Assembly: GCA_964016885.1 (NCBI GenBank)
Contig: OZ024764.1
Span: 186,001 to 250,000 of the forward strand
Direction of reading: 5' to 3'
Length of the DNA stretch: 64,000 bases
From: Eledone cirrhosa
Taxonomy: Eukaryota
The position numbers were made by a program, and so were the translations under genes. Each line of letters starts with the position of its first letter. The stretch's first letter is position 1. The notes below the pieces were generated by a model. It was not told where the DNA came from, made no database searches, and saw nothing but the letters and a program-made list of their open reading frames with translations. Shown piece after piece: positions 3,001 through 58,557 of the stretch.

Positions 3001-3978
3001 TTATATGTTATAATTCCCCAGTTGACCTATACTAAATGCTTCACTGATAGGGTTATATGTTATAATTCCCCAGTTGACCTATACTAAAGGGCTTCACTGA
3101 TAGGGTTATATGTGTTATAATTCCCAGTTGACCTATATTAAAGGGCTTCACTGATAGGGTTATATGTTATAATTCCCCAGTTGACCTATACTAAATGCTT
3201 CACTGATAGGGTTATATGTTATAATTCCCCAGTTGACCTATACTAAAGGGCTTCACTGATAGGGTTATATGTTATAATTTCCCAGTTGACCTATACTAAA
3301 GGGCTCCACTGATAGGGTTATATGTTATAATTTCCCAGTTGGCCTATACTAAAGGGCTTCACTGATAGGGATATATGTGTTATAATTCCCCAGTTGACCT
3401 ATACTAAAGGACTTCACTGATAGGGTTATATGTTATAATTCCCCAGTTGACCTATACTAAAGGGCTTCACTGATAGGGTTATATGTTATAATTCCCCAGT
3501 TGGCCTATACTAAAGGGCTTCACTGATAGGGTTATATGTTATAATTCCCCAGTTGACCTATACTAAAGGGTTTCACTGATAGGGTTATATGTTATAATTC
3601 CCCAGTTGACCTATACTAAAGGGGTTCACTGATAGGGTTATATGTTATAATTTCCCAGTTGGCCTATACTAAAGGGCTTCACTGATAGGGTTATATGTTA
3701 TAATTCCCCAGTTGACCTATATTAAAGGGCTTCACTGATAGGGTTATATGTTATAATTCCCCAGTTGACCTATATTAAAGGGCTTCACTGATAGGGTTAT
3801 ATGTTATAATTCCCCAGTTGACCTATATTAAAGGGCTTCACTGATAGGGTTATATGTTATAATTCCCCAGTTGACCTATACTCAAGGGCTTCACTGATAG
3901 GGTTATATGTTATAATTTCCCAGTTGACCTATACTAAAGGGCTTCACTGATAGGGTCATATGTTATAATTCCCCAGTT
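1..3978. repeat. 53-bp minisatellite array (~75 copies in window, runs off the left edge), probably intronic
   Basis: Consensus CCCCAGTTGACCTATACTAAAGGGCTTCACTGATAGGGTTATATGTTATAATT recurs at 1, 54, ... with substitutions and small indels. It ends at ccccagtt ~3978, about 185 bp upstream of a splice acceptor. Confidence 0.97.
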
Positions 3979-4163: not shown

Positions 4164-4292
4164 GTGTTCCTGTTTTGCGGAGAACTGGTTATCACGTTTA
4201 CTGTATCGTATGTGTTGTCGATGGCATTTGAAGCTCCAATGATGGGGCTGGAGAAAGTCCTCAGGGAATCATTGAAAAATAAACGGAAATAA
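4164..4292 (+). CDS. Terminal coding exon of a nose-resistant-to-fluoxetine-6 / O-acyltransferase-like (acyltransferase-3 family) membrane protein; upstream exons lie outside the window
   Basis: Acceptor tttccattgcAG ends at 4163. The phase-0 frame reads VFLFCGELVITFTVSYVLSMAFEAPMMGLEKVLRESLKNKRK* (TAA 4290-4292). A hydrophobic helix followed by FE(A/S)PxxxLEK matches the C-terminal motif of NRF-6/OACYL proteins, recognised from family knowledge. Too short for the ORF track. Confidence 0.85.
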   Translation: MFLFCGELVITFTVSYVLSMAFEAPMMGLEKVLRESLKNKRK

Positions 4293-4342
4293 AATATATT
4301 TTTGAATTTATAATGTTGTTGTCGTTGTATGTATGTGGGTGT
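4278..4342 (+). promoter_or_regulatory. Putative polyadenylation signals plus GU-rich downstream element
   Basis: AATAAA at 4278-4283 and at 4288-4293 (overlapping the stop codon), followed by the GT-rich tract tgttgttgtcgttgtatgtatgtgggtgt at ~4314-4342. Confidence 0.5.
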
Positions 4343-4347
4343 ATATA

Positions 4348-4942: not shown

Positions 4943-5100
4943 AATGAGTGTGTGTGTGGAATGTAGAAAAGTAACACACGAGTTGATATATATATAAACA
5001 AATAGTAAAAAGGAAAGAAAGTAGAAAATGCTGGAGGGGTTTCTTCAAGTATAATATCAAAACATTTATGTATTTATAAAGTGGATATTTCCACATTTAA

Positions 5101-5237
5101 TAATTGTTTCTACGTTAGGCACAAGGCCAGCAATTACCCAGTGCATTACTGGTACTTTATTTTATCGACCCCATAAGGATGAAAGGCAAAGTTAACCTCG
5201 GCGCAATTTGAACTCAGAATGGCAAGGGCCGTAACTC
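5101..5237 (-). mobile_element. tRNA-derived SINE (octopus-type), 5'-truncated at the satellite junction
   Basis: GGCACAAGGCCAGCAATT...ACTGGTACTTTATTTTATCGACCCC..AAGGATGAAAGGCAAAGTTAACCTCGGCGCAATTTGAACTCAGAA. Related copies lie at 60544-60878 and 62271-62440. The minus strand has a B-box-like GAGTTCAAATT. Confidence 0.8.
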
Positions 5238-5240
5238 TAT

Positions 5241-8200
5241 GTTATGAAATGTGGGAAAGGAGTTCATAACTTTGAAGTTAAGAACTGTTGGAAAGGAGTT
5301 CATAACTTTGAAGTTATGAACTGTTGGAAAGGAGTTCATAACTTTGAAGTTATGAACTGTTGGAAAGGAGTTCACAACTTTGGAGTTCAGAACTGTTGGA
5401 AAGGAGTTCATAACTTTGGAGTTAAGAACTGTTGGAAAGGAGTTCATAACTTTGGAGTTAAGAACGGTTGGAAAGGAGTTCATAACTTTGGAGTTAAGAA
5501 CTGTTGGAAAGGAGTTCATAACTTTGGAGTTAAGAACTGTTGGAAAGGAGTTCATAACTTTGGAGTTAAGAACTGTTGGAAAGGAGTTCATAACTTTGAA
5601 GTTAAGAACTGTTGGAAAGGAGTTCATAACTTTGGAGTTATGAACTGTTGGAAAGGAGTTCATAACTTTGGAGTTATGAACTGTTGGAAAGGAGTTCATA
5701 ACTTTGAAGTTATGGACTGTTGGAAAGGAGTTCATAACTTTGAAGTTATGGACTGTTCGAAAGGAGTTCATAACTTTGGAGTTAAGAACTGTTGGAAAGG
5801 AGTTCATAACTTTGAAATTAAGAACTGTTGGAAAGGAGTTCATAACTTTGGAGTTAAGAACTGTTGGAAAGGAGTTCATAACTTTGGAGTTAAGAACTGT
5901 TGGAAAGGAGTTCATAACTTTGGAGTTAAGAACTGTTGGAAAGGAGTTCATAACTTTGGAGTTAAGAACTGTTGGAAAGGAGTTCATAACTTTGGAGTTA
6001 AGAACTGTTGGAAAGGAGTTCATAACTTTGGAGTTAAGAACTGTTGGAAAAGAGTTCATAACTTTGGAGTTAAGAACTGTTGGAAAGGAGTTCATAACTT
6101 TGAAGTTAAGAACTGTTGGAAAGGAGTTCATAACTTTGGAGTTATGAACTGTTGGAAAGGAGTTCATAACTTTGGAGTTATGAACTGTTGGAAAGGAGTT
6201 CATAACTTTGAAGTTATGGACTGTTGGAAAGGAGTTCATAACTTTGAAGTTATGGACTGTTGGAAAGGAGTTCATAACTTTGAAGTTATGAACTGTTGGA
6301 AAGGAGTTAATTACTTTGGAGTTAAGAACTGTTGGAAAGGAGTTCATAACTTTGAAGTTATGGACTGTTGGAAAGGAGTTAATTACTTTGAAGTTAAGAA
6401 CTGTTGGAAAGGAGTTAATTACTTTGAAGTTATGAACTGTTGGAAAGGAGTTAATTACTTTGAAGTTATGAACTGTTGGAAAGGAGTTCATAACTTTGAA
6501 GTTATGAACTGTTGGAAAGGAGTTAATTACTTTGAAGTTAAGAACTGTTGGAAAGGAGTTAATTACTTTGAAGTTATGGACTGTTGGAAAGGAGTTAATT
6601 ACTTTGAAGTTATGGACTGTTGGAAAGGAGTTAATTACTTTGAAGTTATGAACTGTTGGAAAGTATATAACTTTGAAGTTATGAACTGTTGGAAAGGAGT
6701 GTATAGCTTTGAAGTTATGAACTGTTGGAAAGGAGTTCATAACTTTGAAGTTATGAACTGTTGGAAAGTGTATAACTTTGAAGTTATGAACTGTTGGAAA
6801 GGAGTTCATAACTTTGAAGTTATGAACTGTTGGAAAGGAGTTAATTACTTTGAAGTTATGAACTGTTAGAAAGGAGTTAATTACTTTGAAGTTATGAACT
6901 GTTGGAAAGGAGTTAATTACTTTGAAGTTATGAACTGTTGGAAAGGAGTTAATTACTTTGAAGTTATGAACTGTTGGAAAGGAGTTAATTACTTTGAAGT
7001 TATGAACTGTTGGAAAGGAGTTTATAACTTTGAAGTTATGAACTGTTGGAAAGGAGTTAATTACTTTGAAGTTATGAACTGTTAGAAAGGAGTTAATTAC
7101 TTTGAAGTTATGAACTGTTGGAAAGGAGTTAATTACTTTGAAGTTATGAACTGTTGGAAAGGAGTTCATAACTTTGAAGTTATGAACTGTTGGAAAGGAG
7201 TTTATAACTTTGAAGTTATGAACTGTTGGAAAGGAGTTCATAACTTTGAAGTTATGAACTGTTGGAAAGGAGTGTATAGCTTTGAAGTTATGAACTGTTG
7301 CAAAGGAGTTCATAACTTTGAAGTTATGAACTGTTGGAAAGGAGTTCATAACTTTGAAGTTAAGAACTGTTGGAAAGGAGTTAATTACTTTGAAGTTATG
7401 AACTGTTGGAAAGGAGTTCATAACTTTGAAGTTAAGAACTGTTGGAAAGGAGTTAATTACTTTGAAGTTATGAACTGTTGGAAAGGAGTTAATTACTTTG
7501 AAGTTAAGAACTGTTGGAAAGGAGTTAATTACTTTGAAGGTATGAACTGTTGGAAAGGAGATTATAACTTTGGAGTTAAGAACTGTTGGAAAGGAGTTCA
7601 TTACTTTGAAGTTATGAACTGTTGGAAAGGAGTTCATAACTTTGAAGTTAAGAACTGTTGGAAAGGAGTTAATTACTTTGAAGTTATGAACTGTTGGAAA
7701 GGAGTTCATAACTTTGAAGTTAAGAACGGTTGGAAAGGAGTTGACAACTTTGAAGTTATGAACTGTTGGAAAGGAGTTCATAACTTTGAAGTTATGAACT
7801 GTTGGAAAGGATTTCATAACTTTGAAGTTATGAACTGTTGGAAAGGAGTTTATAACTTTGAAGTTATGAACTGTTGGAAAGGAGTTCATAACTTTGGAGT
7901 TATGAACTGTTGGAAAGGAGTTCATAACTTTGGAGTTAAGAACTGTTGGAAAGTAGTTCATAACTTTGAAGTTATGAAATGTTGGAAAGGAGTTTATAAC
8001 TTTGAAGTTATGAACTGTTGGAAAGGAGTTTATAACTTTGAAGTTATGAACAGTTGGAAAGGAGTTTATAACTTTGAAGTTATGAACTGTTGGAAAGGAG
8101 TTCATAACTTTGAAGTTATGAACTGTTGGAAAGGAGTTTATAACTTTGAAGTTATGAACTGTTGGAAAGGAGTTCATAACTTTGAAGTTATGAACTGTTG

Positions 8201-29200: not shown

Positions 29201-32200
29201 TGAAGTTATGAACTGTTGGAAAGAAGATTATAACTTTGGAGTTAAGAACTGTTGGAAAGGAGTTCATTACTTTGAAGTTATGAACTGTTGGAAAGGAGTT
29301 TATAACTTTGGAGTTATGAACTGTTGGAAAGGAGTTCATTACTTTGAAGTTATGAACTGTTGGAAAGGAGTTCATAACTTTGAAGTTAAGAACTGTTGGA
29401 AAGGAGTTCATTACGTTGAAGTTATGAACTGTTGGAAAGGAGTTCATAACTTTGAAGTTAAGAACTGTTGGAAAGGAGTTAATTACTTTGAAGTTATGAA
29501 CTGTTGGAAAGGAGTTCATAACTTTGAAGTTATGAACTGTTGGAAAGGATTTCATAACTTTGAAGTTATGAACTGTTGGAAACGAGTTTATAACTTTGAA
29601 GTTATGAACTGTTGGAAAGGAGTTCATAACTTTGAAGTTATGAACTGTTGGAAAGGAGTTCATAACTTTGGAGTTATGAACTGTTGGAAAGGAGTTCATA
29701 ACTTTGGAGTTAAGAACTGTTGGAAAGGAGTTCATAACTTTGAAGTTATGAAATGTTGGAAAGGAGTTTATAACTTTGAAGTTATGAAATGTTGGAAAGG
29801 AGTTTATAACTTTGAAGTTATGAACTGTTGGAAAGGAGTTTATAACTTTGAAGTTATGAACTGTTGGAAAGGAGTTCATAACTTTGAAGTTATGAACTGT
29901 TGGAAAGGAGTTTATAACTTTGAAGTTATGAACTGTTGGAAAGCAGTTCATAACTTTGAAGTTATTAACTGTTGGAAAGGAGTTCATAACTTTGAAGTTA
30001 TGAACTGTTGGAAAGGATTTCATAACTTTGAAGTTATGAACTGTTGGAAAGGAGTTCATAACTTTGGAGTTATGAACTGTTGGAAAGGAGTTCATAACTT
30101 TGGAGTTAAGAACTGTTGGAAAGGAGTTTATAACTTTGGAGTTATGAACTGTTGGAAAGGAGTTCATAACTTTGAAGTTAAGAACTGTTGGAAAGGAGTT
30201 CATAACTTTGAAGTTATAAACTGTTGGAAAGGAGTTCATAACTTTGGAGTTATGAACTGTTGGAAAGGAGTTCATAACTTTGAAGTTATGAACTGTTGGA
30301 AAGGAGTTAATTACTTTGGAGTTATGAACTGTTGGAAAGGAGTTTATAACTTTGGAGTTATGAACTGTTGGAAAGGAGTTTATAACTTTGGAGTTAAGAA
30401 CTGTTGGAAAGGAGTTCATAACTTTGAAGTTATGAACTGTTGGAAAGGAGTTCATAACTTTGAAGTTAAGAACTGTTGGAAAGGAGTTAATTACTTTGAA
30501 GTTATGAACTGTTGGAAAGGAGTTCATAACTTTGAAGTTATGGACTGTTGGAAAGGAGTTCATAACTTTAAAGTTATGAACTGTTGGAAAGGAGTTCATA
30601 ACTTTGAAGTTATGAACTGTTGGAAAGGAGTTAATTACTTTGAAGTTATGAACTGTTGGAAAGGAGTTCATAACTTTGAAGTTAAGAACTGTCGGAAAGG
30701 ATTTCATAACTTTGGAGTTATGAACTGTTGGAAAGGAGTTTATAACTTTGAAGTTATGAATTGTTGGAAAGGAGTGTATAGCTTTGAAGTTATGAACTGT
30801 TGGAAAGGAGTTCATAACTTTGAAGTTAAGAACTGTTGGAAAGGAGTTCATAACTTTGAAGTTATGAACTGTTGGAAAGGAGTGTATAGCTTTGAAGTTA
30901 TGAACTGTTGGAAAGGATTTCATAGCTTTGAAGTTATGAACTGTTGGAAAAGAGTTCATAACTTTGAAGTTATGAACTGTTGGAAAGGAGTTCATAACTT
31001 TGAAGTTAAGAACTGTTGGAAAGGAGTTAATTACTTTGTAGTTATGAACTGTTGGAAAGGAGTTCATAACTTTGAAGTTAAGAACTGTTGGAAAGGAGTT
31101 AATTACTTTGAAGTTATGAACTGTTGGAAAGGAGTTCATAACTTTGAAGTTATGAACTGTTGGAAAGGAGATTATAACTTTGGAGTTAAGAACTGTTGGA
31201 AAGGAGTTCATTACTTTGAAGTTATGAACTGTTGGAAAGGAGTTTATAACTTTGGAGTTATGAACTGTTGGAAAGGAGTTAATTACTTTGAAGTTATGAA
31301 CTGTTGGAAAGGAGTTCATAACTTTGAAGTTAAGAACTGTTGGAAAGGAGTTCATAACTTTGAAGTTAAGAACTGTTGGAAAGGAGTTAATTACTTTGAA
31401 GTTATGAACTGTTGGAAAGGAGATTATAACTTTGGAGTTAAGAACTGTTGGAAAGGAGTTCATTACTTTGAAGTTATGAACTGTTGGAAAGGAGTTTATA
31501 ACTTTGGAGTTATGAACTGTTGGAAAGGAGTTCATTACTTTGAAGTTATGAACTGTTGGAAAGGAGTTCATAACTTTGAAGTTAAGAACTGTTGGAAAGG
31601 AGTTCATTACGTTGAAGTTATGAACTGTTGGAAAGGAGTTCATAACTTTGAAGTTAAGAACTGTTGGAAAGGAGTTAATTACTTTGAAGTTATGAACTGT
31701 TGGAAAGGAGTTCATAACTTTGAAGTTATGAACTGTTGGAAAGGATTTCATAACTTTGAAGTTATGAACTGTTGGAAAGGAGTTTATAACTTTGAAGTTA
31801 TGAACTGTTGGAAAGGAGTTCATAACTTTGAAGTTATGAACTGTTGGAAAGGAGTTCATAACTTTGGAGTTATGAACTGTTGGAAAGGAGTTCATAACTT
31901 TGGAGTTAAGAACTGTTGGAAAGGAGTTCATAACTTTGAAGTTATGAAATGTTGGAAAGGAGTTTATAACTTTGAAGTTATGAAATGTTGGAAAGGAGTT
32001 TATAACTTTGAAGTTATGAACTGTTGGAAAGGAGTTTATAACTTTGAAGTTATGAACTGTTGGAAAGGAGTTCATAACTTTGAAGTTATGAACTGTTGGA
32101 AAGGAGTTTATAACTTTGAAGTTATGAACTGTTGGAAAGGAGTTCATAACTTTGCAGTTATGAACTGTTGGAAAGGAGTTCATAACTTTGAAGTTATGAA

Positions 32201-35200
32201 CTGTTGGAAAGGATTTCATAACTTTGAAGTTATGAACTGTTGGAAAGGAGTTCATAACTTTGGAGTTATGAACTGTTGGAAAGGAGTTCATAACCTTGGA
32301 GTTATGAACTGTTGGAAAGGAGTTCATAACTTTGGAGTTAAGAACTGTTGGAAAGGATTTCATAACTTTGAAGTTATGAACTGTTGGAAAGGAGTTTATA
32401 ACTTTGAAGTTATGAACTGTTGGAAAGGAGTTCATAACTTTGAAGTTATGAACTGTTGGAAAGGAGTTCATAACTTTGGAGTTATGAACTGTTGGAAAGG
32501 AGTTCATAACTTTGGAGTTAAGAACTGTTGGAAAGGAGTTCATAACTTTGAAGTTATGAAATGTTGGAAAGGAGTTTATAACTTTGAAGTTATGAACTGT
32601 TGGAAAGGAGTTTATAACTTTGAAGTTATGAACTGTTGGAAAGGAGTTTATAACTTTGAAGTTATGAACTGTTGGAAAGGAGTTCATAACTTTGAAGTTA
32701 TGAACTGTTGGAAAGGAGTTTATAACTTTGAAGTTATGAACTGTTGGAAAGGAGTTCATAACTTTGAAGTTATGAACTGTTGGAAAGGAGTTCATAACTT
32801 TGAAGTTATGAACTGTTGGAAAGGATTTCATAACTTTGAAGTTATGAACTGTTGGAAAGGAGTTCATAACTTTGGAGTTATGAACTGTTGGAAAGGAGTT
32901 CATAACTTTGGAGTTATGAACTGTTGGAAAGGAGTTCATAACTTTGGAGTTAAGAACTGTTGGAAAGGAGTTCATTACTTTGAAGTTATGAACTGTTGGA
33001 AAGGAGTTAATAACTTTGAAGTTAAGAACTGTTGGAAAGGAGTTAATTACTTTGAAGTTATGAACTGTTGGAAAGGAGTTCATAACTTTGAAGTTAAGAA
33101 CTGTTGGAAAGGAGTTGACAACTTTGAAGTTATGAACTGTTGGAAAGGAGTTCATAACTTTGAAGTTATGAACTGTTGGAAAGGATTTCATAACTTTGAA
33201 GTTATGAACTGTTGGAAAGGAGTTTATAACTTTGAAGTTATGAACTATTGGAAAGGAGTTCATAACTTTGAAGTTATGAACTGTTGGAAAGGAGTTCATA
33301 ACTTTGGAGTTATGAACTGTTGGAAAGGAGTTCATAACTTTGGAGTTAAGAACTGTTGGAAAGGAGTTCATAACTTTGAAGTTATGAAATGTTGGAAAGG
33401 AGTTTATAACTTTGAAGTTATGAACTGTTGGAAAGGAGTTTATAACTTTGAAGTTATGAACTGTTGGAAAGGAGTTTATAACTTTGAAGTTATGAACTGT
33501 TGGAAAGGAGTTTATAACTTTGGAGTTATGAACTGTTGGAAAGGAGTTCATAACTTTGAAGTTAAGAACTGTTGGAAAGGAGTTCATAACTTTGAAGTTA
33601 TAAACTGTTGGAAAGGAGTTCATAACTTTGGAGTTATGAACTGTTGGAAAGGAGTTCATAACTTTGAAGTTATGAACTGTTGGAAAGGAGTTAATTACTT
33701 TGGAGTTATGAACTGTTGGAAAGGAGTTTATAACTTTGGAGTTATGAACTGTTGGAAAGGAGTTTATAACTTTGGAGTTAAGAACTGTTGGAAAGGAGTT
33801 CATAACTTTGAAGTTATGAACTGTTGGAAAGGAGTTCATAACTTTGAAGTTAAGAACTGTTGGAAAGGAGTTCATAACTTTGAAGTTATGAACTGTTGGA
33901 AAGGAGTTCATAACTTTGAAGTTATGGACTGTTGGAAAGGAGTTCATAACTTTGAAGTTATGAACTGTTGGAAAGGAGTTCATAACTTTGAAGTTATAAA
34001 CTGTTGGAAAGGAGTTCATAACTTTGAAGTTATGAACTGTTGGAAAGGAGTTCATTACTTTGAAGTTAAGAACTGTTGGAAAGGAGTTAATTACTTTGAA
34101 GTTATGAACTGTTGGAAAGGAGTTCATAACTTTGAAGTTATGGACTGTTGGAAAGGAGTTCATAACTTTGAAGTTATGAACTGTTGGAAAGGAGTTCATA
34201 ACTTTGAAGTTATGAACTGTTGGAAAGGAGTTCATAACTTTGAAGTTTAGAACTGTCGGAAAGGATTTCATAACTTTGGAGTTATGAACTGTTGGAAAGG
34301 AGTGTATAGCTTTGAAGTTATGAACTGTTGGAAAAGAGTTCATAACTTTGAAGTTAAGAACTGTTGGAAAGGAGTTTATAACTTTGAAGTTATGAACTGT
34401 TGGAAAGGAGTTAATTACTTTGAAGTTATGAACTGTTGGAAAGGAGTTCATAACTTTGAAGTTAAGAACTGTCGGAAAGGATTTCATAACTTTGGAGTTA
34501 TGAACTGTTGGAAAGGAGTTTATAACTTTGAAGTTATGAACTGTTGGAAAGGAGTTTATAACTTTGAAGTTATGAACTGTTAGAAAGGAGTTCATTACTT
34601 TGAAGTTATGAACTGTTGGAAAGGAGTTCATAACTTTGGAGTTAAGAACTGTTGGAAAGGAGTTCATAACTTTGAAGTTATGAAATGTTGGAAAGGAGTT
34701 TATAACTTTGAAGTTATGAACTGTTGGAAAGGATTTCATAACTTTGAAGTTATGAACTGTTGGAAAGGAGTTCATAACTTTGGAGTTATGAACTGTTGGA
34801 AAGGAGTTCATAACTTTGGAGTTATGAACTGTTGGAAAGGAGTTCATAACTTTGGAGGTAAGAACTGTTGGAAAGGAGTTCATTACTTTGAAGTTATGAA
34901 CTGTTGGAAAGGAGTTAATAACTTTGAAGTTAAGAACTGTTGGAAAGGAGTTAATTACTTTGAAGTTATGAACTGTTGGAAAGGAGTTCATAACTTTGAA
35001 GTTAAGAACTGTTGGAAAGGAGTTGACAACTTTGAAGTTATGAACTGTTGGAAAGGAGTTCATAACTTTGAAGTTATGAACTGTTGGAAAGGATTTCATA
35101 ACTTTGAAGTTATGAACTGTTGGAAAGGAGTTTATAACTTTGAAGTTATGAACTATTGGAAAGGAGTTCATAACTTTGAAGTTATGAACTGTTGGAAAGG

Positions 35201-38200
35201 AGTTCATAACTTTGGAGTTATGAACTGTTGGAAAGGAGTTCATAACTTTGGAGTTAAGAACTGTTGGAAAGGAGTTCATAACTTTGAAGTTATGAAATGT
35301 TGGAAAGGAGTTTATAACTTTGAAGTTATGAACTGTTGGAAAGGAGTTTATAACTTTGAAGTTATGAACTGTTGGAAAGGAGTTTATAACTTTGAAGTTA
35401 TGAACTGTTGGAAAGGAGTTCATAACTTTGAAGTTATGAACTGTTGGAAAGGAGTTTATAACTTTGAAGTTATGAACTGTTGGAAAGCAGTTCATAACTT
35501 TGAAGTTATTAACTGTTGGAAAGGAGTTCATAACTTTGAAGTTATGAACTGTTGGAAAGGATTTCATAACTTTGAAGTTATGAACTGTTGGAAAGGAGTT
35601 CATAACTTTGGAGTTATGAACTGTTGGAAAGGAGTTCATAACTTTGGAGTTAAGAACTGTTGGAAAGGAGTTTATAACTTTGGAGTTATGAACTGTTGGA
35701 AAGGAGTTCATAACTTTGAAGTTAAGAACTGTTGGAAAGGAGTTCATAACTTTGAAGTTATAAACTGTTGGAAAGGAGTTCATAACTTTGGAGTTATGAA
35801 CTGTTGGAAAGGAGTTCATAACTTTGAAGTTATGAACTGTTGGAAAGGAGTTAATTACTTTGGAGTTATGAACTGTTGGAAAGGAGTTTATAACTTTGGA
35901 GTTATGAACTGTTGGAAAGGAGTTTATAACTTTGGAGTTAAGAACTGTTGGAAAGGAGTTCATAACTTTGAAGTTATGAACTGTTGGAAAGGAGTTCATA
36001 ACTTTGAAGTTAAGAACTGTTGGAAAGGAGTTAATTACTTTGAAGTTATGAACTGTTGGAAAGGAGTTCATAACTTTGAAGTTATGGACTGTTGGAAAGG
36101 AGTTCATAACTTTAAAGTTATGAACTGTTGGAAAGGAGTTCATAACTTTGAAGTTATGAACTGTTGGAAAGGAGTTAATTACTTTGAAGTTATGAACTGT
36201 TGGAAAGGAGTTCATAACTTTGAAGTTAAGAACTGTCGGAAAGGATTTCATAACTTTGGAGTTATGAACTGTTGGAAAGGAGTTTATAACTTTGAAGTTA
36301 TGAATTGTTGGAAAGGAGTGTATAGCTTTGAAGTTATGAACTGTTGGAAAGGAGTTCATAACTTTGAAGTTATGAACTGTTGGAAAGGAGTTCATAACTT
36401 TGAAGTTATGAACTGTTGGAAAGGAGTGTATAGCTTTGAAGTTATGAACTGTTGGAAAGGATTTCATAGCTTTGAAGTTATGAACTGTTGGAAAAGAGTT
36501 CATAACTTTGAAGTTATGAACTGTTGGAAAGGAGTTCATAACTTTGAAGTTAAGAACTGTTGGAAAGGAGTTAATTACTTTGTAGTTATGAACTGTTGGA
36601 AAGGAGTTCATAACTTTGAAGTTAAGAACTGTTGGAAAGGAGTTAATTACTTTGAAGTTATGAACTGTTGGAAAAGAGTTCATAACTTTGAAGTTATGAA
36701 CTGTTGGAAAGGAGTTCATAACTTTGAAGTTAAGAACTGTTGGAAAGGAGTTAATTACTTTGTAGTTATGAACTGTTGGAAAGGAGTTCATAACTTTGAA
36801 GTTAAGAACTGTTGGAAAGGAGTTAATTACTTTGAAGTTATGAACTGTTGGAAAGGAGTTTATAACTTTGGAGTTATGAACTGTTGGAAAGGAGTTAATT
36901 ACTTTGAAGTTATGAACTGTTGGAAAGGAGTTCATAACTTTGAAGTTAAGAACTGTTGGAAAGGAGTTCATAACTTTGAAGTTAAGAACTGTTGGAAAGG
37001 AGTTAATTACTTTGAAGTTATGAACTGTTGGAAAGGAGATTATAACTTTGGAGTTAAGAACTGTTGGAAAGGAGTTCATTACTTTGAAGTTATGAACTGT
37101 TGGAAAGGAGTTTATAACTTTGGAGTTATGAACTGTTGGAAAGGAGTTCATTACTTTGAAGTTATGAACTGTTGGAAAGGAGTTCATAACTTTGAAGTTA
37201 AGAACTGTTGGAAAGGAGTTCATTACGTTGAAGTTATGAACTGTTGGAAAGGAGTTCATAACTTTGAAGTTAAGAACTGTTGGAAAGGAGTTAATTACTT
37301 TGAAGTTATGAACTGTTGGAAAGGAGTTCATAACTTTGAAGTTATGAACTGTTGGAAAGGATTTCATAACTTTGAAGTTATGAACTGTTGGAAAGGAGTT
37401 TATAACTTTGAAGTTATGAACTGTTGGAAAGGAGTTCATAACTTTGAAGTTATGAACTGTTGGAAAGGAGTTCATAACTTTGGAGTTATGAACTGTTGGA
37501 AAGGAGTTCATAACTTTGGAGTTAAGAACTGTTGGAAAGGAGTTCATAACTTTGAAGTTATGAAATGTTGGAAAGGAGTTTATAACTTTGAAGTTATGAA
37601 ATGTTGGAAAGGAGTTTATAACTTTGAAGTTATGAACTGTTGGAAAGGAGTTTATAACTTTGAAGTTATGAACTGTTGGAAAGGAGTTCATAACTTTGAA
37701 GTTATGAACTGTTGGAAAGGAGTTTATAACTTTGAAGTTATGAACTGTTGGAAAGGAGTTCATAACTTTGCAGTTATGAACTGTTGGAAAGGAGTTCATA
37801 ACTTTGAAGTTATGAACTGTTGGAAAGGATTTCATAACTTTGAAGTTATGAACTGTTGGAAAGGAGTTCATAACTTTGGAGTTATGAACTGTTGGAAAGG
37901 AGTTCATAACCTTGGAGTTATGAACTGTTGGAAAGGAGTTCATAACTTTGGAGTTAAGAACTGTTGGAAAGGATTTCATAACTTTGAAGTTATGAACTGT
38001 TGGAAAGGAGTTTATAACTTTGAAGTTATGAACTGTTGGAAAGGAGTTCATAACTTTGAAGTTATGAACTGTTGGAAAGGAGTTCATAACTTTGGAGTTA
38101 TGAACTGTTGGAAAGGAGTTCATAACTTTGGAGTTAAGAACTGTTGGAAAGGAGTTCATAACTTTGAAGTTATGAAATGTTGGAAAGGAGTTTATAACTT

Positions 38201-41200
38201 TGAAGTTATGAACTGTTGGAAAGGAGTTTATAACTTTGAAGTTATGAACTGTTGGAAAGGAGTTTATAACTTTGAAGTTATGAACTGTTGGAAAGGAGTT
38301 CATAACTTTGAAGTTATGAACTGTTGGAAAGGAGTTTATAACTTTGAAGTTATGAACTGTTGGAAAGGAGTTCATAACTTTGAAGTTATGAACTGTTGGA
38401 AAGGAGTTCATAACTTTGAAGTTATGAACTGTTGGAAAGGATTTCATAACTTTGAAGTTATGAACTGTTGGAAAGGAGTTCATAACTTTGGAGTTATGAA
38501 CTGTTGGAAAGGAGTTCATAACTTTGGAGTTATGAACTGTTGGAAAGGAGTTCATAACTTTGGAGTTAAGAACTGTTGGAAAGGAGTTCATTACTTTGAA
38601 GTTATGAACTGTTGGAAAGGAGTTAATAACTTTGAAGTTAAGAACTGTTGGAAAGGAGTTAATTACTTTGAAGTTATGAACTGTTGGAAAGGAGTTCATA
38701 ACTTTGAAGTTAAGAACTGTTGGAAAGGAGTTGACAACTTTGAAGTTATGAACTGTTGGAAAGGAGTTCATAACTTTGAAGTTATGAACTGTTGGAAAGG
38801 ATTTCATAACTTTGAAGTTATGAACTGTTGGAAAGGAGTTTATAACTTTGAAGTTATGAACTATTGGAAAGGAGTTCATAACTTTGAAGTTATGAACTGT
38901 TGGAAAGGAGTTCATAACTTTGGAGTTATGAACTGTTGGAAAGGAGTTCATAACTTTGGAGTTAAGAACTGTTGGAAAGGAGTTCATAACTTTGAAGTTA
39001 TGAAATGTTGGAAAGGAGTTTATAACTTTGAAGTTATGAACTGTTGGAAAGGAGTTTATAACTTTGAAGTTATGAACTGTTGGAAAGGAGTTTATAACTT
39101 TGAAGTTATGAACTGTTGGAAAGGAGTTTATAACTTTGGAGTTATGAACTGTTGGAAAGGAGTTCATAACTTTGAAGTTAAGAACTGTTGGAAAGGAGTT
39201 CATAACTTTGAAGTTATAAACTGTTGGAAAGGAGTTCATAACTTTGGAGTTATGAACTGTTGGAAAGGAGTTCATAACTTTGAAGTTATGAACTGTTGGA
39301 AAGGAGTTAATTACTTTGGAGTTATGAACTGTTGGAAAGGAGTTTATAACTTTGGAGTTATGAACTGTTGGAAAGGAGTTTATAACTTTGGAGTTAAGAA
39401 CTGTTGGAAAGGAGTTCATAACTTTGAAGTTATGAACTGTTGGAAAGGAGTTCATAACTTTGAAGTTAAGAACTGTTGGAAAGGAGTTCATAACTTTGAA
39501 GTTATGAACTGTTGGAAAGGAGTTCATAACTTTGAAGTTATGGACTGTTGGAAAGGAGTTCATAACTTTGAAGTTATGAACTGTTGGAAAGGAGTTCATA
39601 ACTTTGAAGTTATAAACTGTTGGAAAGGAGTTCATAACTTTGAAGTTATGAACTGTTGGAAAGGAGTTCATTACTTTGAAGTTAAGAACTGTTGGAAAGG
39701 AGTTAATTACTTTGAAGTTATGAACTGTTGGAAAGGAGTTCATAACTTTGAAGTTATGGACTGTTGGAAAGGAGTTCATAACTTTGAAGTTATGAACTGT
39801 TGGAAAGGAGTTCATAACTTTGAAGTTATGAACTGTTGGAAAGGAGTTCATAACTTTGAAGTTTAGAACTGTCGGAAAGGATTTCATAACTTTGGAGTTA
39901 TGAACTGTTGGAAAGGAGTGTATAGCTTTGAAGTTATGAACTGTTGGAAAAGAGTTCATAACTTTGAAGTTAAGAACTGTTGGAAAGGAGTTTATAACTT
40001 TGAAGTTATGAACTGTTGGAAAGGAGTTAATTACTTTGAAGTTATGAACTGTTGGAAAGGAGTTCATAACTTTGAAGTTAAGAACTGTCGGAAAGGATTT
40101 CATAACTTTGGAGTTATGAACTGTTGGAAAGGAGTTTATAACTTTGAAGTTATGAACTGTTGGAAAGGAGTTTATAACTTTGAAGTTATGAACTGTTAGA
40201 AAGGAGTTCATTACTTTGAAGTTATGAACTGTTGGAAAGGAGTTCATAACTTTGGAGTTAAGAACTGTTGGAAAGGAGTTCATAACTTTGAAGTTATGAA
40301 ATGTTGGAAAGGAGTTTATAACTTTGAAGTTATGAACTGTTGGAAAGGATTTCATAACTTTGAAGTTATGAACTGTTGGAAAGGAGTTCATAACTTTGGA
40401 GTTATGAACTGTTGGAAAGGAGTTCATAACTTTGGAGTTATGAACTGTTGGAAAGGAGTTCATAACTTTGGAGGTAAGAACTGTTGGAAAGGAGTTCATT
40501 ACTTTGAAGTTATGAACTGTTGGAAAGGAGTTAATAACTTTGAAGTTAAGAACTGTTGGAAAGGAGTTAATTACTTTGAAGTTATGAACTGTTGGAAAGG
40601 AGTTCATAACTTTGAAGTTAAGAACTGTTGGAAAGGAGTTGACAACTTTGAAGTTATGAACTGTTGGAAAGGAGTTCATAACTTTGAAGTTATGAACTGT
40701 TGGAAAGGATTTCATAACTTTGAAGTTATGAACTGTTGGAAAGGAGTTTATAACTTTGAAGTTATGAACTATTGGAAAGGAGTTCATAACTTTGAAGTTA
40801 TGAACTGTTGGAAAGGAGTTCATAACTTTGGAGTTATGAACTGTTGGAAAGGAGTTCATAACTTTGGAGTTAAGAACTGTTGGAAAGGAGTTCATAACTT
40901 TGAAGTTATGAAATGTTGGAAAGGAGTTTATAACTTTGAAGTTATGAACTGTTGGAAAGGAGTTTATAACTTTGAAGTTATGAACTGTTGGAAAGGAGTT
41001 TATAACTTTGAAGTTATGAACTGTTGGAAAGGAGTTCATAACTTTGAAGTTATGAACTGTTGGAAAGGAGTTTATAACTTTGAAGTTATGAACTGTTGGA
41101 AAGCAGTTCATAACTTTGAAGTTATTAACTGTTGGAAAGGAGTTCATAACTTTGAAGTTATGAACTGTTGGAAAGGATTTCATAACTTTGAAGTTATGAA

Positions 41201-44200
41201 CTGTTGGAAAGGAGTTCATAACTTTGGAGTTATGAACTGTTGGAAAGGAGTTCATAACTTTGGAGTTAAGAACTGTTGGAAAGGAGTTTATAACTTTGGA
41301 GTTATGAACTGTTGGAAAGGAGTTCATAACTTTGAAGTTAAGAACTGTTGGAAAGGAGTTCATAACTTTGAAGTTATAAACTGTTGGAAAGGAGTTCATA
41401 ACTTTGGAGTTATGAACTGTTGGAAAGGAGTTCATAACTTTGAAGTTATGAACTGTTGGAAAGGAGTTAATTACTTTGGAGTTATGAACTGTTGGAAAGG
41501 AGTTTATAACTTTGGAGTTATGAACTGTTGGAAAGGAGTTTATAACTTTGGAGTTAAGAACTGTTGGAAAGGAGTTCATAACTTTGAAGTTATGAACTGT
41601 TGGAAAGGAGTTCATAACTTTGAAGTTAAGAACTGTTGGAAAGGAGTTAATTACTTTGAAGTTATGAACTGTTGGAAAGGAGTTCATAACTTTGAAGTTA
41701 TGGACTGTTGGAAAGGAGTTCATAACTTTAAAGTTATGAACTGTTGGAAAGGAGTTCATAACTTTGAAGTTATGAACTGTTGGAAAGGAGTTAATTACTT
41801 TGAAGTTATGAACTGTTGGAAAGGAGTTCATAACTTTGAAGTTAAGAACTGTCGGAAAGGATTTCATAACTTTGGAGTTATGAACTGTTGGAAAGGAGTT
41901 TATAACTTTGAAGTTATGAATTGTTGGAAAGGAGTGTATAGCTTTGAAGTTATGAACTGTTGGAAAGGAGTTCATAACTTTGAAGTTATGAACTGTTGGA
42001 AAGGAGTTCATAACTTTGAAGTTATGAACTGTTGGAAAGGAGTGTATAGCTTTGAAGTTATGAACTGTTGGAAAGGATTTCATAGCTTTGAAGTTATGAA
42101 CTGTTGGAAAAGAGTTCATAACTTTGAAGTTATGAACTGTTGGAAAGGAGTTCATAACTTTGAAGTTAAGAACTGTTGGAAAGGAGTTAATTACTTTGTA
42201 GTTATGAACTGTTGGAAAGGAGTTCATAACTTTGAAGTTAAGAACTGTTGGAAAGGAGTTAATTACTTTGAAGTTATGAACTGTTGGAAAGGAGTTCATA
42301 ACTTTGAAGTTATGAACTGTTGGAAAGGAGATTATAACTTTGGAGTTAAGAACTGTTGGAAAGGAGTTCATTACTTTGAAGTTATGAACTGTTGGAAAGG
42401 AGTTTATAACTTTGGAGTTATGAACTGTTGGAAAGGAGTTAATTACTTTGAAGTTATGAACTGTTGGAAAGGAGTTCATAACTTTGAAGTTAAGAACTGT
42501 TGGAAAGGAGTTCATAACTTTGAAGTTAAGAACTGTTGGAAAGGAGTTAATTACTTTGAAGTTATGAACTGTTGGAAAGGAGATTATAACTTTGGAGTTA
42601 AGAACTGTTGGAAAGGAGTTCATTACTTTGAAGTTATGAACTGTTGGAAAGGAGTTTATAACTTTGGAGTTATGAACTGTTGGAAAGGAGTTCATTACTT
42701 TGAAGTTATGAACTGTTGGAAAGGAGTTCATAACTTTGAAGTTAAGAACTGTTGGAAAGGAGTTCATTACGTTGAAGTTATGAACTGTTGGAAAGGAGTT
42801 CATAACTTTGAAGTTAAGAACTGTTGGAAAGGAGTTAATTACTTTGAAGTTATGAACTGTTGGAAAGGAGTTCATAACTTTGAAGTTATGAACTGTTGGA
42901 AAGGATTTCATAACTTTGAAGTTATGAACTGTTGGAAAGGAGTTTATAACTTTGAAGTTATGAACTGTTGGAAAGGAGTTCATAACTTTGAAGTTATGAA
43001 CTGTTGGAAAGGAGTTCATAACTTTGGAGTTATGAACTGTTGGAAAGGAGTTCATAACTTTGGAGTTAAGAACTGTTGGAAAGGAGTTCATAACTTTGAA
43101 GTTATGAAATGTTGGAAAGGAGTTTATAACTTTGAAGTTATGAAATGTTGGAAAGGAGTTTATAACTTTGAAGTTATGAACTGTTGGAAAGGAGTTTATA
43201 ACTTTGAAGTTATGAACTGTTGGAAAGGAGTTCATAACTTTGAAGTTATGAACTGTTGGAAAGGAGTTTATAACTTTGAAGTTATGAACTGTTGGAAAGG
43301 AGTTCATAACTTTGCAGTTATGAACTGTTGGAAAGGAGTTCATAACTTTGAAGTTATGAACTGTTGGAAAGGATTTCATAACTTTGAAGTTATGAACTGT
43401 TGGAAAGGAGTTCATAACTTTGGAGTTATGAACTGTTGGAAAGGAGTTCATAACCTTGGAGTTATGAACTGTTGGAAAGGAGTTCATAACTTTGGAGTTA
43501 AGAACTGTTGGAAAGGATTTCATAACTTTGAAGTTATGAACTGTTGGAAAGGAGTTTATAACTTTGAAGTTATGAACTGTTGGAAAGGAGTTCATAACTT
43601 TGAAGTTATGAACTGTTGGAAAGGAGTTCATAACTTTGGAGTTATGAACTGTTGGAAAGGAGTTCATAACTTTGGAGTTAAGAACTGTTGGAAAGGAGTT
43701 CATAACTTTGAAGTTATGAAATGTTGGAAAGGAGTTTATAACTTTGAAGTTATGAACTGTTGGAAAGGAGTTTATAACTTTGAAGTTATGAACTGTTGGA
43801 AAGGAGTTTATAACTTTGAAGTTATGAACTGTTGGAAAGGAGTTCATAACTTTGAAGTTATGAACTGTTGGAAAGGAGTTTATAACTTTGAAGTTATGAA
43901 CTGTTGGAAAGGAGTTCATAACTTTGAAGTTATGAACTGTTGGAAAGGAGTTCATAACTTTGAAGTTATGAACTGTTGGAAAGGATTTCATAACTTTGAA
44001 GTTATGAACTGTTGGAAAGGAGTTCATAACTTTGGAGTTATGAACTGTTGGAAAGGAGTTCATAACTTTGGAGTTATGAACTGTTGGAAAGGAGTTCATA
44101 ACTTTGGAGTTAAGAACTGTTGGAAAGGAGTTCATTACTTTGAAGTTATGAACTGTTGGAAAGGAGTTAATAACTTTGAAGTTAAGAACTGTTGGAAAGG

Positions 44201-53200: not shown

Positions 53201-56200
53201 AGTTCATAACTTTGAAGTTAAGAACTGTTGGAAAGGAGTTAATTACTTTGAAGTTATGAACTGTTGGAAAGGAGTTCATAACTTTGGAGTTATGAACTGT
53301 TGGAAAGGAGTTCACAACTTTGAAGTTATGAACTGTTGGAAAGGAGTTCATAACTTTGAAGTTAAGAACTTTTGGAAAGGAGTTCATAACTTTGGAGTTA
53401 AGAACTGTTGGAAAGGAGTTCACAACTTTGAAGTTATGAACTGTTGGAAAGGAGTTCATAACTTTGGAGTTATGAACTGTTGGAAAGGAGTTCATAACTT
53501 TGGAGTTATGAACTGTTGGAAAGGAGTTCATAACTTTGAAGTTAAGAACTGTTGGAAAGGAGTTCACAACTTTGAAGTTATGAACTGTTGGAAAGGAGTT
53601 CATAACTTTGGAGTTATGAACTGTTGGAAAGGAGTTCATAACTTTGAAGTTAAGAACTGTTGGAAAGGAGTTCACAACTTTGAAGTTATGAACTGTTGGA
53701 AAGGAGTTCATAACTTTGGAGTTATGAACTGTTGGAAAGGAGTTCATAACTTTGGAGTTATGAACTGTTGGAAAGTAGTTCATAACTTTGAATTTATGAA
53801 CTGTTGGAAAGGAGTTCATAACTTTGAAGTTATGAACTGTTGGAAAGGAGTTCATAACTTTGGAGTTATGAACTGTTGGAAAGGAGTTCATAACTTTGGA
53901 GTTATGAACTGTGGGAAAGGAGTTCATAACTTTGGAGTTAAGAACTGTTGGAAATGAGTTCATAACTTTGAAGTTATGAACTGTTGGAAAGGACTTCATA
54001 ACTTTGAAGTTAAGAACTGTTGGAAAGGAGTTCATAACTTTGGAGTTATAACTTGGAGTTATGAACTGTTGGAAAGGAGTTCATAACTTTGGAGTTATGA
54101 ACTGTTGGAAAGGAGTTCATAACTTTGAAGTTATGAACTGTTGGAAAGGAGTTCATAACTTTGAAGTTATGAACTGTTGGAAAGGAGTTCATAACTTTGG
54201 AGTTATGAACTGTTGGAAAGGAGTTCATAACTTTGAAGTTATGAACTGTTGGAAAGGAGTTAATTACTTTGGAGTTATGAACTGTTGGAAAGGAGTTTAT
54301 AACTTTGGAGTTATGAACTGTTGGAAAGGAGTTTATAACTTTGGAGTTAAGAACTGTTGGAAAGGAGTTCATAACTTTGAAGTTATGAACTGTTGGAAAG
54401 GAGTTCATAACTTTGAAGTTAAGAACTGTTGGAAAGGAGTTAATTACTTTGAAGTTATGAACTGTTGGAAAGGAGTTCATAACTTTGAAGTTATGGACTG
54501 TTGGAAAGGAGTTCATAACTTTGAAGTTATGAACTGTTGGAAAGGAGTTCATAACTTTGAAGTTATGAACTGTTGGAAAGGAGTTAATTACTTTGAAGTT
54601 ATGAACTGTTGGAAAGGAGTTCATAACTATGAAGTTAAGAACTGTCGGAAAGGATTTCATAACTTTGGAGTTATGAACTGTTGGAAAGGAGTTAATTACT
54701 TTGAAGTTATGAACTGTTGGAAAGGAGTTCATAACTTTGAAGTTATGAACTGTTGGAAAGGAGTTCATAACTTTGAAGTTATGAACTGTTGGAAAGGAGT
54801 TCATAACTTTGAAGTTATGAACTGTTGGAAAGGAGTTCATAACTTTGAAGTTAAGAACTGTTGGAAAGGAGTTCATAACTTTGAAGTTATGAACTGTTGG
54901 AAAGGAGTTCATAACTTTGAAGTTATGAACTGTTGGAAAGGAGTTCATAACTTTGAAGTTATGAACTGTTGGAAAGGAGTTAATTACTTTGAAGTTATGA
55001 ACTGTTGGAAAGGAGTTCATAACTTTGAAGTTATGGACTGTTGGAAAGGAGTTCATAACTTTGGAGTTATGAACTGTTGGAAAGGAGTTAATTACTTTGA
55101 AGTTATGAACTGTTGGAAAGGAGTTAATTACTTTGAAGTTACGAACTGTTGGAAAGGAGTTCATAACTTTGAAGTTATGAACTGTTGGAAAGGAGTTAAT
55201 TACTTTGAAGTTATGAACTGTTGGAAAGGAGTTAATTACTTTGAAGTTACGAACTGTTGGAAAGGAGTTCATAACTTTGGATTTATGAACTGTTGGAAAG
55301 GAGTTGATAACTTTGAAGTTATGAATTGTTGGAAAGGAGTTCATAACTTTGGAGTTAAGAACTGTTGGAAAGGAGTTCATAACTTTGAAGTTAAGAACTG
55401 TTGGAAAGGAGTTCATAACTTTGAAGTTATGAACTGTTGGAAAGGAGTTCATAGCTTTGGAGTTATGAACTGTTGGAAAGGAGTTCATAACTTTGAAGTT
55501 ATGAACTGTTGGAAAGGAGTTCATAACTTTGAAGTTAAGAACTGTTGGAAAGGAGTTAATTACTTTGAAGTTATGAACTGTTGGAAAGGAGTTCATAACT
55601 TTGGAGTTATGAACTGTTGGAAAGGAGTTCACAACTCTGAAGTTATGAACTGTTGGAAAGGAGTTCATAACTTTGAAGTTAAGAACTTTTGGAAAGGAGT
55701 TCATAACTTTGGAGTTAAGAACTGTTGGAAAGGAGTTCACAACTTTGAAGTTATGAACTGTTGGAAAGGAGTTCATAACTTTGGAGTTATGAACTGTTGG
55801 AAAGGAGTTCATAACTTTGGAGTTATGAACTGTTGGAAAGGAGTTCATAACTTTGAAGTTAAGAACTGTTGGAAAGGAGTTCACAACTTTGAAGTTATGA
55901 ACTGTTGGAAAGGAGTTCATAACTTTGGAGTTATGAACTGTTGGAAAGGAGTTCATAACTTTGGAGTTATGAACTGTTGGAAAGTAGTTCATAACTTTGA
56001 ATTTATGAACTGTTGGAAAGGAGTTCATAACTTTGAAGTTATGAACTGTTGGAAAGGAGTTCATAACTTTGGAGTTATGAACTGTTGGAAAGGAGTTCAT
56101 AACTTTGGAGTTATGAACTGTGGGAAAGGAGTTCATAACTTTGGAGTTAAGAACTGTTGGAAATGAGTTCATAACTTTGAAGTTATGAACTGTTGGAAAG

Positions 56201-58362
56201 GACTTCATAACTTTGAAGTTAAGAACTGTTGGAAAGGAGTTCATAACTTTGGAGTTATGAACTGTTGGAAAGGAGTTCATAACTTTGGAGTTATGAACTG
56301 TTGGAAAGGAGTTCATAACTTTGAAGTTATGAACTGTTGGAAAGGAGTTCATAACTTTGAAGTTATGAACTGTTGGAAAGGAGTTCATAACTTTGGAGTT
56401 ATGAACTGTTGGAAAGGAGTTCATAACTTTGGAGTTATGAACTGTGGGAAAGGAGTTCATAACTTTGGAGTTAAGAACTGTTGGAAAGGAGTTCATAACT
56501 TTGAAGTTATGAACTGTTGGAAAGGACTTCATAACTTTGAAGTTAAGAACTGTTGGAAAGGAGTTGATAACTTTGGAGTTATGAACTGTTGGAAAGGAGT
56601 TCATAACTTTGGAGTTATGAACTGTTGGAAAGGAGTTCATAACTTTGAAGTTATGAACTGTTGGAAAGGAGTTCATAACTTTGAAGTTATGAACTGTTGG
56701 AAAGGACTTCATAACTTTGAAGTTAAGAACTGTTGGAAAGGAGTTCATAACTTTGGAGTTAGGAACTGTTGGAAAGGAGTTCATAACTTTGGAGTTATGA
56801 ACTGTTGGAAAGGAGTTCATAACTTTGAAGTTATGAACTGTTGGAAAGGAGTTCATAACTTTGAAGTTATGAACTGTTGGAAAGGAGTTCATAACTTTGA
56901 AGTTATGAACTGTTGGAAAGGAGTTTATAACTTTGGAGTTATGAACTGTTGGAAAGGAGTTCATAACTTTGGAGTTATGAACTGTTGGAAAGGAGTTCAT
57001 AACTTTGAAGTTATGAACTGTTAGAAAGGAGTTCATAACTTTGGAGTTATGAACTGTTGGAAAGGAGTTCATAACTTTGAAGTTATGAACTGTTGGAAAG
57101 GAGTTCATAACTTTGAAGTTATGAACTGTTGGAAAGGAGTTCATAACTTTGAAGTTAAGAACTGTTGGAAAGGAGTTCATAACTTTGGAGTTATGAACTG
57201 TTGGAAAGGAGTTCATAACTTTGGAGTTATGAACTGTTGGAAAGGAGTTCATAACTTTGGAGTTATGAACTGTTGGAAAGGAGTTCATAACTTTGAAGTT
57301 ATGAACTGTTGGAAAGGAGTTCATAACTTTGGAGTTATGAACTGTTGGAAAGGAGTTCATAACTTTGAAGTTATGAACTGTTGGAAAGGAGTTCATAACT
57401 TTGAAGTTATGAACTGTTGGAAAGGAGTTCATAACTTTGAAGTTAAGAACTGTTGGAAAGGAGTTCATAACTTTGGAGTTATGAACTGTTGGAAAGGAGT
57501 TCATAACTTTGGAGTTATGAACTGTTGGAAAGGAGTTCATAACTTTGAAGTTATGAACTGTTGGAAAGGATTTCATAACTTTGAAGTTAAGAACTGTTGG
57601 AAAGGAGTTCATAACTTTGGAGTTATGAACTGTGGGAAAGGACTTCATAACTTTGAAGTTAAGAACTGTTGGAAAGGAGTTGATAACTTTGGAGTTATGA
57701 ACTGTTGGAAAGGAGTTCATAACTTTGGAGTTATGAACTGTGGGAAAGGAGTTCATAACTTTGGAGTTAAGAACTGTTGGAAAGGAGTTCATAACTTTGA
57801 AGTTATGAACTGTTGGAAAGGATTTCATAACTTTGAAGTTAAGAACTGTTGGAAAGGAGTTCATAACTTTGGAGTTATGAACTGTGGGAAAGGACTTCAT
57901 AACTTTGAAGTTAAGAACTGTTGGAAAGGAGTTCATAACTTTGGAGTTATGAACTGTTGGAAAGGAGTTCATAACTTTGGAGTTATGAACTGTGGGAAAG
58001 GACTTCATAACTTTGAAGTTAAGAACTGTTGGAAAGGAGTTCATAACTTTGGAGTTATGAACTGTTGGAAAGGAGTTCATAACTTTGGAGTTATGAACTG
58101 TTGGAAAGGAGTTCACAACTTTGAAGTTATGAACTGTTGGAAAGGAGTTCATAACTTTGGAGTTAAGAACTGTTGGAAAGGAGTTCATAACTTTGAAGTT
58201 AAGAACTGTTGGAAAGGAGTTCAGAACTTTGGAGTTATAAACTGTTGGAAAGGAGTTCATAACTTTGAAGTTATGAACTGTTGGAAAGGAGTTCATAACT
58301 TTGAAGTTAAGAACTGTTGGAAAGGAGTTCACAACTTTGAAGTTATGAACTGTTGGAAAGGA
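5241..58362. repeat. Giant 36-bp palindromic satellite array (~53.1 kb, ~1,475 monomers) with higher-order repeats
   Basis: Consensus AAGTTATGAACT-GTTGGAAAGG-AGTTCATAACTT-TG, where the two 12-mers are exact reverse complements. Head-to-tail, uninterrupted, no spacers. Recurrent variants include gaa/gga, atg/aag, cat/tat, aattac, ggattt and tgtatagc. Confidence 0.99.
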
Positions 58363-58557
58363 AAAGAAGGAAAAGAAGAACAAGAAGGAGGAGAAGGAGG
58401 AGGAGAAGAAGAAGAAGAAGGCAAAAAATAATAAGAAGAACAAGAAAGGGGAGGAGGAGAAGAAAAAGAAAAATAAGGAGAAGAAGAAGAAGGCAAAAAA
58501 GAAGAAAAAGGCGAAGGAAAAAAGAAAAAGCAGGAGGAGAAGAAGAAAAACAGAAAG
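58363..58557. repeat. Purine-rich (GAA/GGA/AAG) low-complexity tract abutting the satellite end
   Basis: Nearly pure A/G on the + strand. It grades out of the last monomer through GGAAAGGA. Confidence 0.9.

Follow-up and report, generated by a model that had tools for sequence, protein, structure and literature searches.

Organization of the locus

The window analysed here, by which the whole 64,000-bp stretch is meant, corresponds to C25:186001-250000 of the 29.35-Mb contig C25 of Eledone cirrhosa. It holds a giant tandem array of a 36-bp unit with inverted arms (a dyad); the ancestry of this array and the significance of its dyad are the subject of this analysis. Tandem Repeats Finder (TRF) detects period 36 at 5241-54053 (1,356 copies) and at 54042-58362 (120 copies). 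Tiling yields 1,474 complete monomers, of which 1,469 measure 36 bp; four others have 33 bp and one has 49 bp. Both analyses bear out a preliminary description of the window, made from the sequence alone, as regards a 53-kb satellite of about 1,475 copies at 5241..58362; the monomer given there is the most frequent (359 copies in the tiling) of 103 distinct types. The features of the window are collected in Table 1.

Table 1. Features of the window (MITE, miniature inverted-repeat transposable element; SINE, short interspersed nuclear element)
Feature	Position	Strand	Remarks
End of an unrelated 53-bp satellite, 96.8 kb long	1..3978	.	No dyad; control for the need of a dyad
Last coding exon of a presumed acyltransferase-3/NRF-6-like gene	4164..4292	+	Weak Pfam support; context only
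Very abundant dispersed repeat, presumably SINE-like, cut at the left junction and fused to the array in place of the MITE internal segment	5099..5241	+	Depth; loose ends 5098/5099, 5241
Tandem array of about 1,475 36-bp units, attributed to a piggyBac 5' subterminal region	5241..58362	+	Neither MITE end
Higher-order duplication: 151 monomers (5,436 bp) at 31219 recur identical at 36835	31219..42270	+	Period 156 monomers
Aberrant 49-bp monomer (+13 bp), single	54007..54055	+	Shifts phase, breaks stop-free frames
AAG-rich microsatellite joined to the array's right edge in place of the MITE terminus	58363..58547	+	

The units of the array differ from one another by 6.1% on average (mean pairwise difference). 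The monomer types are arranged in nested, partly diverged higher-order blocks over the full array, and some variants are specific to it. A change at position 30 is present in 252 of 1,469 array monomers and in 0 of 713 units from elsewhere in the genome; the most frequent variants of the array are rare or absent in these outside units. The array-specific variants point to probable growth of the window array in isolation. Alternatively, its length may have been inflated by assembly error: the 5,436-bp block is repeated without a single difference, and parts of it occur a third time. Such an artefact is improbable in view of the many monomer types, whose higher-order blocks extend along the whole array, and of the real MITE-bound arrays described below, which reach 135 units.

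Origin of the 36-bp unit

A 19-mer core of the monomer has 1,658 exact matches genome-wide, 1,127 of which are inside the window. Forty outside loci were taken from the first 100 listed matches of one unit variant, which is not a random sample. They contain 1-48 units between common flanks, and these flanks are the two parts of a MITE. The MITE internal junction is shared by 34 of the 40 loci. The left terminus is present in 30 (with TTAA outside it in 23) and the right terminus in 35 (with TTAA in 27); 26 loci have both termini, 15 of them with TTAA on both sides. Counted with or without the 36-bp unit, the left terminus plus TTAA has 604 exact matches in the genome (control, 0).

The termini read CC...GG and form an imperfect inverted repeat (10/14 in locus L046). 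According to PMC2872659 (papers cited by PMC number are represented here by excerpts), piggyBac-type MITEs have a 12-19-bp terminal inverted repeat with a CC[C/T]T motif. The termini of the present family begin CCTG and CCTC, so that three of the four letters fit. Judged from its ends, the source element is a piggyBac-derived MITE: it has the TTAA target duplication and shares its ends with a transposase-coding element. A Kolobok (T2-MITE) identity does not fit, as the AGGRR terminal motif (PMC6004289) is absent from these CC...GG termini. A second unit of 40 bp, from the other end of the MITE, forms tandem arrays of its own at L096, L100 and C19:25644494-25645098; it holds a hairpin with an 8-bp arm (z -4.1).

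The transposase-coding element was found among 20 loci fetched for the piggyBac transposase family PF13843. One of these, the top match L060, corresponds to the MITE; the other 19, from piggyBac families with intact ORFs, have unrelated ends, and these families are rejected as the parent. L060 contains an uninterrupted open reading frame (ORF) of 589 aa with a DDE_Tnp_1_7 domain (PF13843, E 1.5e-88) and a C-terminal zinc finger (PF13842). The best solved relative of its product is the piggyBat transposase (E 1.3e-69), and its aspartates align at three positions that we take to be catalytic. The 5' end of L060 opens with TTAA and a terminus that, like one MITE terminus, begins CCTC. Three to four palindrome-bearing 43-bp repeats come next, followed by a single 36-bp unit, the MITE internal segment and finally the start codon. 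The 36-bp unit thus lies there once, 158 bp upstream of the transposase start codon.

A decayed second copy on contig C24 (L081/L082; 86% and 82% identity) has a 3' end that matches the other arm of the MITE. The two ends are joined in L083, a 515-bp element shortened by deletion, which is bounded by TTAA on both sides and retains a single unit plus 102 bp of the ORF. From these matches, the MITE is probably an internal-deletion derivative of the L060-type piggyBac family. Loci L061-L079 represent other piggyBac families, with full-length copies of about 2.5 kb, near-perfect terminal repeats and several open frames of 561 codons, which suggests recent activity of these families.

A search for longer arrays with a 45-unit MITE gave 1,348 candidates. 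The best 38 were scored, and 18 comparatively long arrays among them were fetched. These 18 arrays contain 15-135 units. Seven, including the 135-unit copy, have both termini with TTAA; in several (L086, L088, L091, L092 and L099) one side has been replaced by another repeat. At least one MITE end or junction is kept in all 18, whereas the window array keeps neither end. No match to the MITE arms was found in C25:1-250,000, and the next 20 kb hold only a 15-bp match at chance level. The window array is therefore a MITE derivative and not itself a MITE.

Three minor observations concern the distribution of the arrays. In L087 (C20:11891800-11896800), a 45-unit array abuts an oppositely oriented MITE end, head-to-head. 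The long MITE-borne arrays among the 38 best-scored candidates lie mostly on small contigs (C19-C27) rather than on the four largest, a tendency to which no statistics are attached. In contigs of other organisms, organism B has one 102-bp contig with about 2.5 units and organism C has two matching contigs, which is too thin to describe a distribution.

The unit is present once in the transposon and in its deletion derivative, 1-135 times in MITEs and 1,475 times in the window; runaway copying is thus its likely origin here. The array is very probably a runaway, selectively neutral expansion of the 36-bp unit of the piggyBac/MITE family. Internal deletion of a piggyBac element would have given rise to the MITE, which the transposase would then have spread. 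Slippage and unequal exchange would have enlarged the number of units in place; the MITE flanks may have been lost through rearrangement with neighbouring repeats, and kilobase-scale duplications may have brought the array to its present length. Hairpins may have aided slippage without being maintained.

Origin and upkeep of the dyad

The arms of the monomer can pair in two registers: as a 12-bp stem with a 10-nt loop, or across monomers as an 11-bp stem with a 4-nt loop. The 12-bp arm is above chance, since none of 3,000 shuffled monomers exceeds 9 bp. To this extent the dyad and the two registers given in the preliminary description stand. Most stems are imperfect: the first register is perfect in 405 of 1,469 monomers (72% imperfect; mean pairing 10.7/12) and the second in 427 of 1,463 junctions. 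In addition, both registers draw on the same arms and are mutually exclusive, so they cannot form together. By its geometry, the second register would be an automatic outcome of repeating any unit with one inverted pair.

In six single-unit copies, the arms that flank the 10-nt loop are only 4-6 bp long, and those that flank a 2-nt spacer measure 2-6 bp; the 12-bp arms therefore form at the tandem junction. A single unit, as read from these copies, is two abutting short hairpins, and repetition would join their outer halves into the second 12-bp arm. The dyad is, on this comparison, a junction product.

Stem pairing shows no sign of upkeep by selection, as far as the variants can tell. Of the possible substitution alleles, 37 of 72 are seen at stem positions and 18 of 36 at loop positions (p=1). 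Among 1,859 pairing changes in the array, 1,858 are one-sided and one is compensatory. Array size has no significant relation to pairing (rho -0.26, p 0.16, n=32 arrays); the proposal that longer arrays have weaker or stronger stems is rejected accordingly. A comparable dyad is absent from all seven neighbouring tandem units examined. The neighbouring 96.8-kb array has no dyad, so arrays of this region can reach a large size without one. Descent of the 36-bp unit from the 43-bp end repeat by decay is also rejected (561 of 2,000 shuffles score as well); in the absence of significant similarity, binding of transposase to the array is unsupported.

The short hairpins may have had a more direct part in duplication. 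A nascent strand would fold at the 6-bp hairpin, copy its own next six bases and re-anneal to a similar hexamer one unit upstream. Such fold-back priming predicts a duplication of exactly 36 bp with 12-bp arms, so that the hairpin would drive both the birth and the growth of the array; it is a refinement compatible with runaway expansion. The boundaries of the unit do fall at the outer ends of both short hairpins, and 33 of 34 MITEs have TAGCTT (the G form) as their leading hexamer. In inner units the arm has its exact complement, with A at position 31 in 174/192 and 649/713 outside units and in 15 of 20 first inner units; the 40-bp unit of the same MITE, which likewise holds a hairpin, also expands. 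On the other hand, the A form already occupies the leading place in L060. It could therefore be no more than the ancestral state, and single-unit MITEs could be the outcome of contraction. The G form exceeds 10% of units in five of the 18 long arrays, and neighbouring arrays expand without dyads. Fold-back priming is a tentative possibility on this evidence, less probable than not.

Several points weigh against runaway neutral expansion of a transposon-derived unit. Firstly, the 40 outside loci were sampled non-randomly, and the parent is incomplete: L060 has no 3' terminus and a diverged 5' terminus, L081 has no 5' end, and a complete autonomous copy was not found among the loci examined. Secondly, the direction from transposon to repeat is deduced from the series; an older repeat may instead have been captured, as is proposed for the miDNA4 family of Xenopus tropicalis. 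The orphan array may have arisen by deletion of the ends in place or by insertion of an array fragment. Thirdly, the six most frequent variants all affect stems, and weighting by copy number makes the loops far more uniform (0.0065 per site, against 0.053 in stems). This gap is driven by the six common variants; among alleles with at least ten copies, 16 of 20 are in stems (13 expected). The stem-heavy common variants could be due to drift or to a bias for weakened stems.

RNA, cruciform and coding potential

The array lies 949 bp past the end of the last coding exon (4292), on the same strand, as the preliminary description had approximated (about 1 kb). Read-through from this gene could produce a long rod-shaped RNA that is edited by ADAR or cut by Dicer, giving small RNAs against piggyBac and its MITEs. 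Eight units as RNA are predicted to form a single rod with 20-26-bp helices (-124.8 kcal/mol, z -17.5, 0/200 shuffles), while the 53-bp neighbour array gives no such fold (z +3.2, no better than shuffles). A contig of run X4, a run with no RNA record, has its join precisely at 4164 and is free of mismatches, in the manner of a spliced transcript; the 36-bp unit matches the 5' region of the transposon. The variants do not favour such a locus: the stems are unconserved, four common transversions break pairing on both strands, and, counted as alleles, transitions that leave a wobble pair on the sense strand (5 of 12 possible) do not outnumber those that do so on the opposite strand (8 of 12). Those unit-bearing X4 contigs which can be placed sit in MITE context. 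A hairpin-RNA locus is unlikely. The suggestion in the preliminary description that a transcript, if made, would be a double-stranded RNA substrate is structurally sound in view of the predicted long duplex rods. The condition set there, a cephalopod host, agrees with a SINE sequence that suggests an octopod. Rfam gives 11 matches to miRNA precursors in 3900-7500, all far below the gathering score; these are generic hairpins.

As DNA, the predicted hairpins of the two registers average -5.8 and -5.4 kcal/mol, compared with -39 and -28 for duplex DNA. According to the model of PMC10783518, as excerpted, arms of 12 bp closed by a 4-nt loop are uncompetitive, and the cost rises further with loop length and with imperfections. 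With these penalties and arms of 11-12 bp that are mostly imperfect, stable cruciforms are unlikely; hairpins on transiently single strands are plausible. For the roughly 1,475 potential cruciforms of the preliminary description, extrusion from such arms is energetically weak.

A structural chromosomal or centromeric element acting through cruciforms had also been proposed. The array does have a high dyad density, short dyads are enriched at many centromeres according to the excerpted text of PMC5889037, and the contig end could be a telocentric centromere region. The array is the only giant one found; the next longest has 135 units among the best 38 of 1,348 candidates scored (assemblies can omit centromeres), and the lack of a second comparable array there speaks against a centromeric function. 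A gene is only 1 kb away, the surrounding arrays are unrelated, the stems are largely imperfect and unconserved, and PMC10783518 models arms of 12 bp with a 4-nt loop as uncompetitive. A centromeric or structural role is unsupported and very improbable.

The minus strand contains a stop-free frame of 16,288 codons (54080->5217), and the four short monomers each lose 3 bp, as might be expected if the array encoded a repetitive protein. Only one of 108 possible single changes creates a stop in this frame, so that an open frame is expected at about even odds. Synonymous alleles (13 of 21 possible) are not in excess of non-synonymous alleles (42 of 87; p 0.33), and the copy-weighted counts are 366 and 1,609. 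The +13 insertion breaks the frame. A protein-coding tandem repeat is rejected on these three grounds, its probability being negligible.

Fold-back priming and read-through might also act together: the hairpin-rich ends of piggyBac would then be a satellite generator, and the array behind an expressed gene would be read through into a rod RNA that is edited or diced against the parent transposon. This combination is improbable.

Relation to known satellites

The route from transposon to satellite is known, usually from partial series. Precedents include miDNA4, reportedly described by Scalvenzi and Pollet in 2014, and Xstir, reportedly described by Hikosaka and Kawahara in 2004. The miDNA4 family of X. 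tropicalis is a MITE with one monomer or a variable array, and its long arrays are proposed to become end-less satellites (PMC12628747, in excerpt). The window array resembles the end product of that model: it is long, head-to-tail, without element ends and locally homogenised. In contrast to the present family, miDNA4 belongs to Tc1/mariner and is thought to have captured an existing repeat (PMC12628747). The 36-bp unit can be followed back to the 5' end of a piggyBac that encodes a transposase, and a single genome contains all stages as far as the 53-kb orphan array.

Xstir, in the Xmix/T2-MITE elements of Xenopus, is likewise an internal segment of a TTAA-targeting MITE that became a tandem family, for which a stem-loop mechanism is proposed (PMC12628747, PMC6004289, PMC2872659). 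T2-MITEs have AGGRR termini and are assigned to Kolobok (PMC6004289), unlike the CC...GG termini and piggyBac parent found here; the excerpt of PMC2872659 already terms Xstir a piggyBac-MITE array. Among marine invertebrates, Acropora corals have piggyBac-type TTAA MITEs, the CMITEs, whose tandem arrays repeat the whole element (PMC2872659) rather than a 36-bp internal piece.

ENSAT1 from Atenspm (Arabidopsis) and TIR-220 from Tetris (Drosophila virilis) are satellites from the 5' or terminal region of a DNA transposon (PMC9659126). They differ from the present case in superfamily, En/Spm and foldback respectively. Their monomers are longer than the 36-bp unit; we know of no junction-made dyad in either.

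In Trichoplusia ni piggyBac, a 19-bp palindromic internal repeat is bound by a CRD dimer (PMC7351741). In the present parent element, the C-terminal zinc finger and the palindromic 43-bp end repeats beside the unit are a likely counterpart; the 36-bp unit itself is not significantly similar to the 43-bp repeat.

The preliminary description had called the satellite undescribed, and this is upheld within the literature searched: no description of the monomer or of a similar cephalopod satellite was found there, Dfam and Repbase being outside that search, and these databases or the octopus repeat supplements of PMC13282606 might hold the MITE. The excerpted text of PMC13282606 lists piggyBac among recently active octopus elements and leaves satellites unmentioned. 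In the three searched reviews of transposon-derived satellites (including PMC12628747 and PMC9659126), the word piggyBac has 0 occurrences. The MITE-derived satellite route is thus known from miDNA4 and Xstir; the present array adds to this kind a piggyBac-derived satellite whose birth series is unusually complete and whose dyad, made at the junction, is not maintained.

A single genome here contains the parent with its coding frame, an intermediate formed by deletion, MITEs of 1-135 units, arrays with one end left and an orphan of 1,475 units, so that rates of growth and of end loss become measurable. A striking satellite dyad can also be a by-product of the duplication junction; caution is required when centromere or cruciform function is inferred from dyad content alone.

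Flanking regions

Tandem repeats make up 196 of the first 250 kb of C25, including the 96.8-kb 53-bp array (full extent C25:93169-189978) and a C-rich array of 21.6 kb. The 186 kb upstream of the window contain no run of three telomeric hexamers; a telomere at the contig start is rejected for this reason, and the term subtelomeric is unproven.

The gene ending at 4292 is one that we take, from its motifs, to be acyltransferase-3/NRF-6-like. Candidates for its upstream exons lie at C25:44-91 kb; one of four matches Pfam PF01757 with E 0.006, below the cut-off, and the last exon alone has no Pfam match. The 53-bp array appears to occupy the last intron (the previous exon candidate is C25:91282-91497), so that the final exon would be an island flanked by two giant satellites.

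Between the stop codon and the array, window 4342-4945 is a dispersed repeat of about 600 bp with many copies of 82-87% identity. By eye, the left flank of L092 resembles window 5001-5070, and the right flank of L088, which replaces the MITE end, resembles a 62/82-bp repeat family at window 62525-63712. Arrays of a 72-bp unit are found in the same region at C25:40293-91154 and 253833-257274; an apparent single copy of this unit, ending in TTAA, lies at window 60880-60960.

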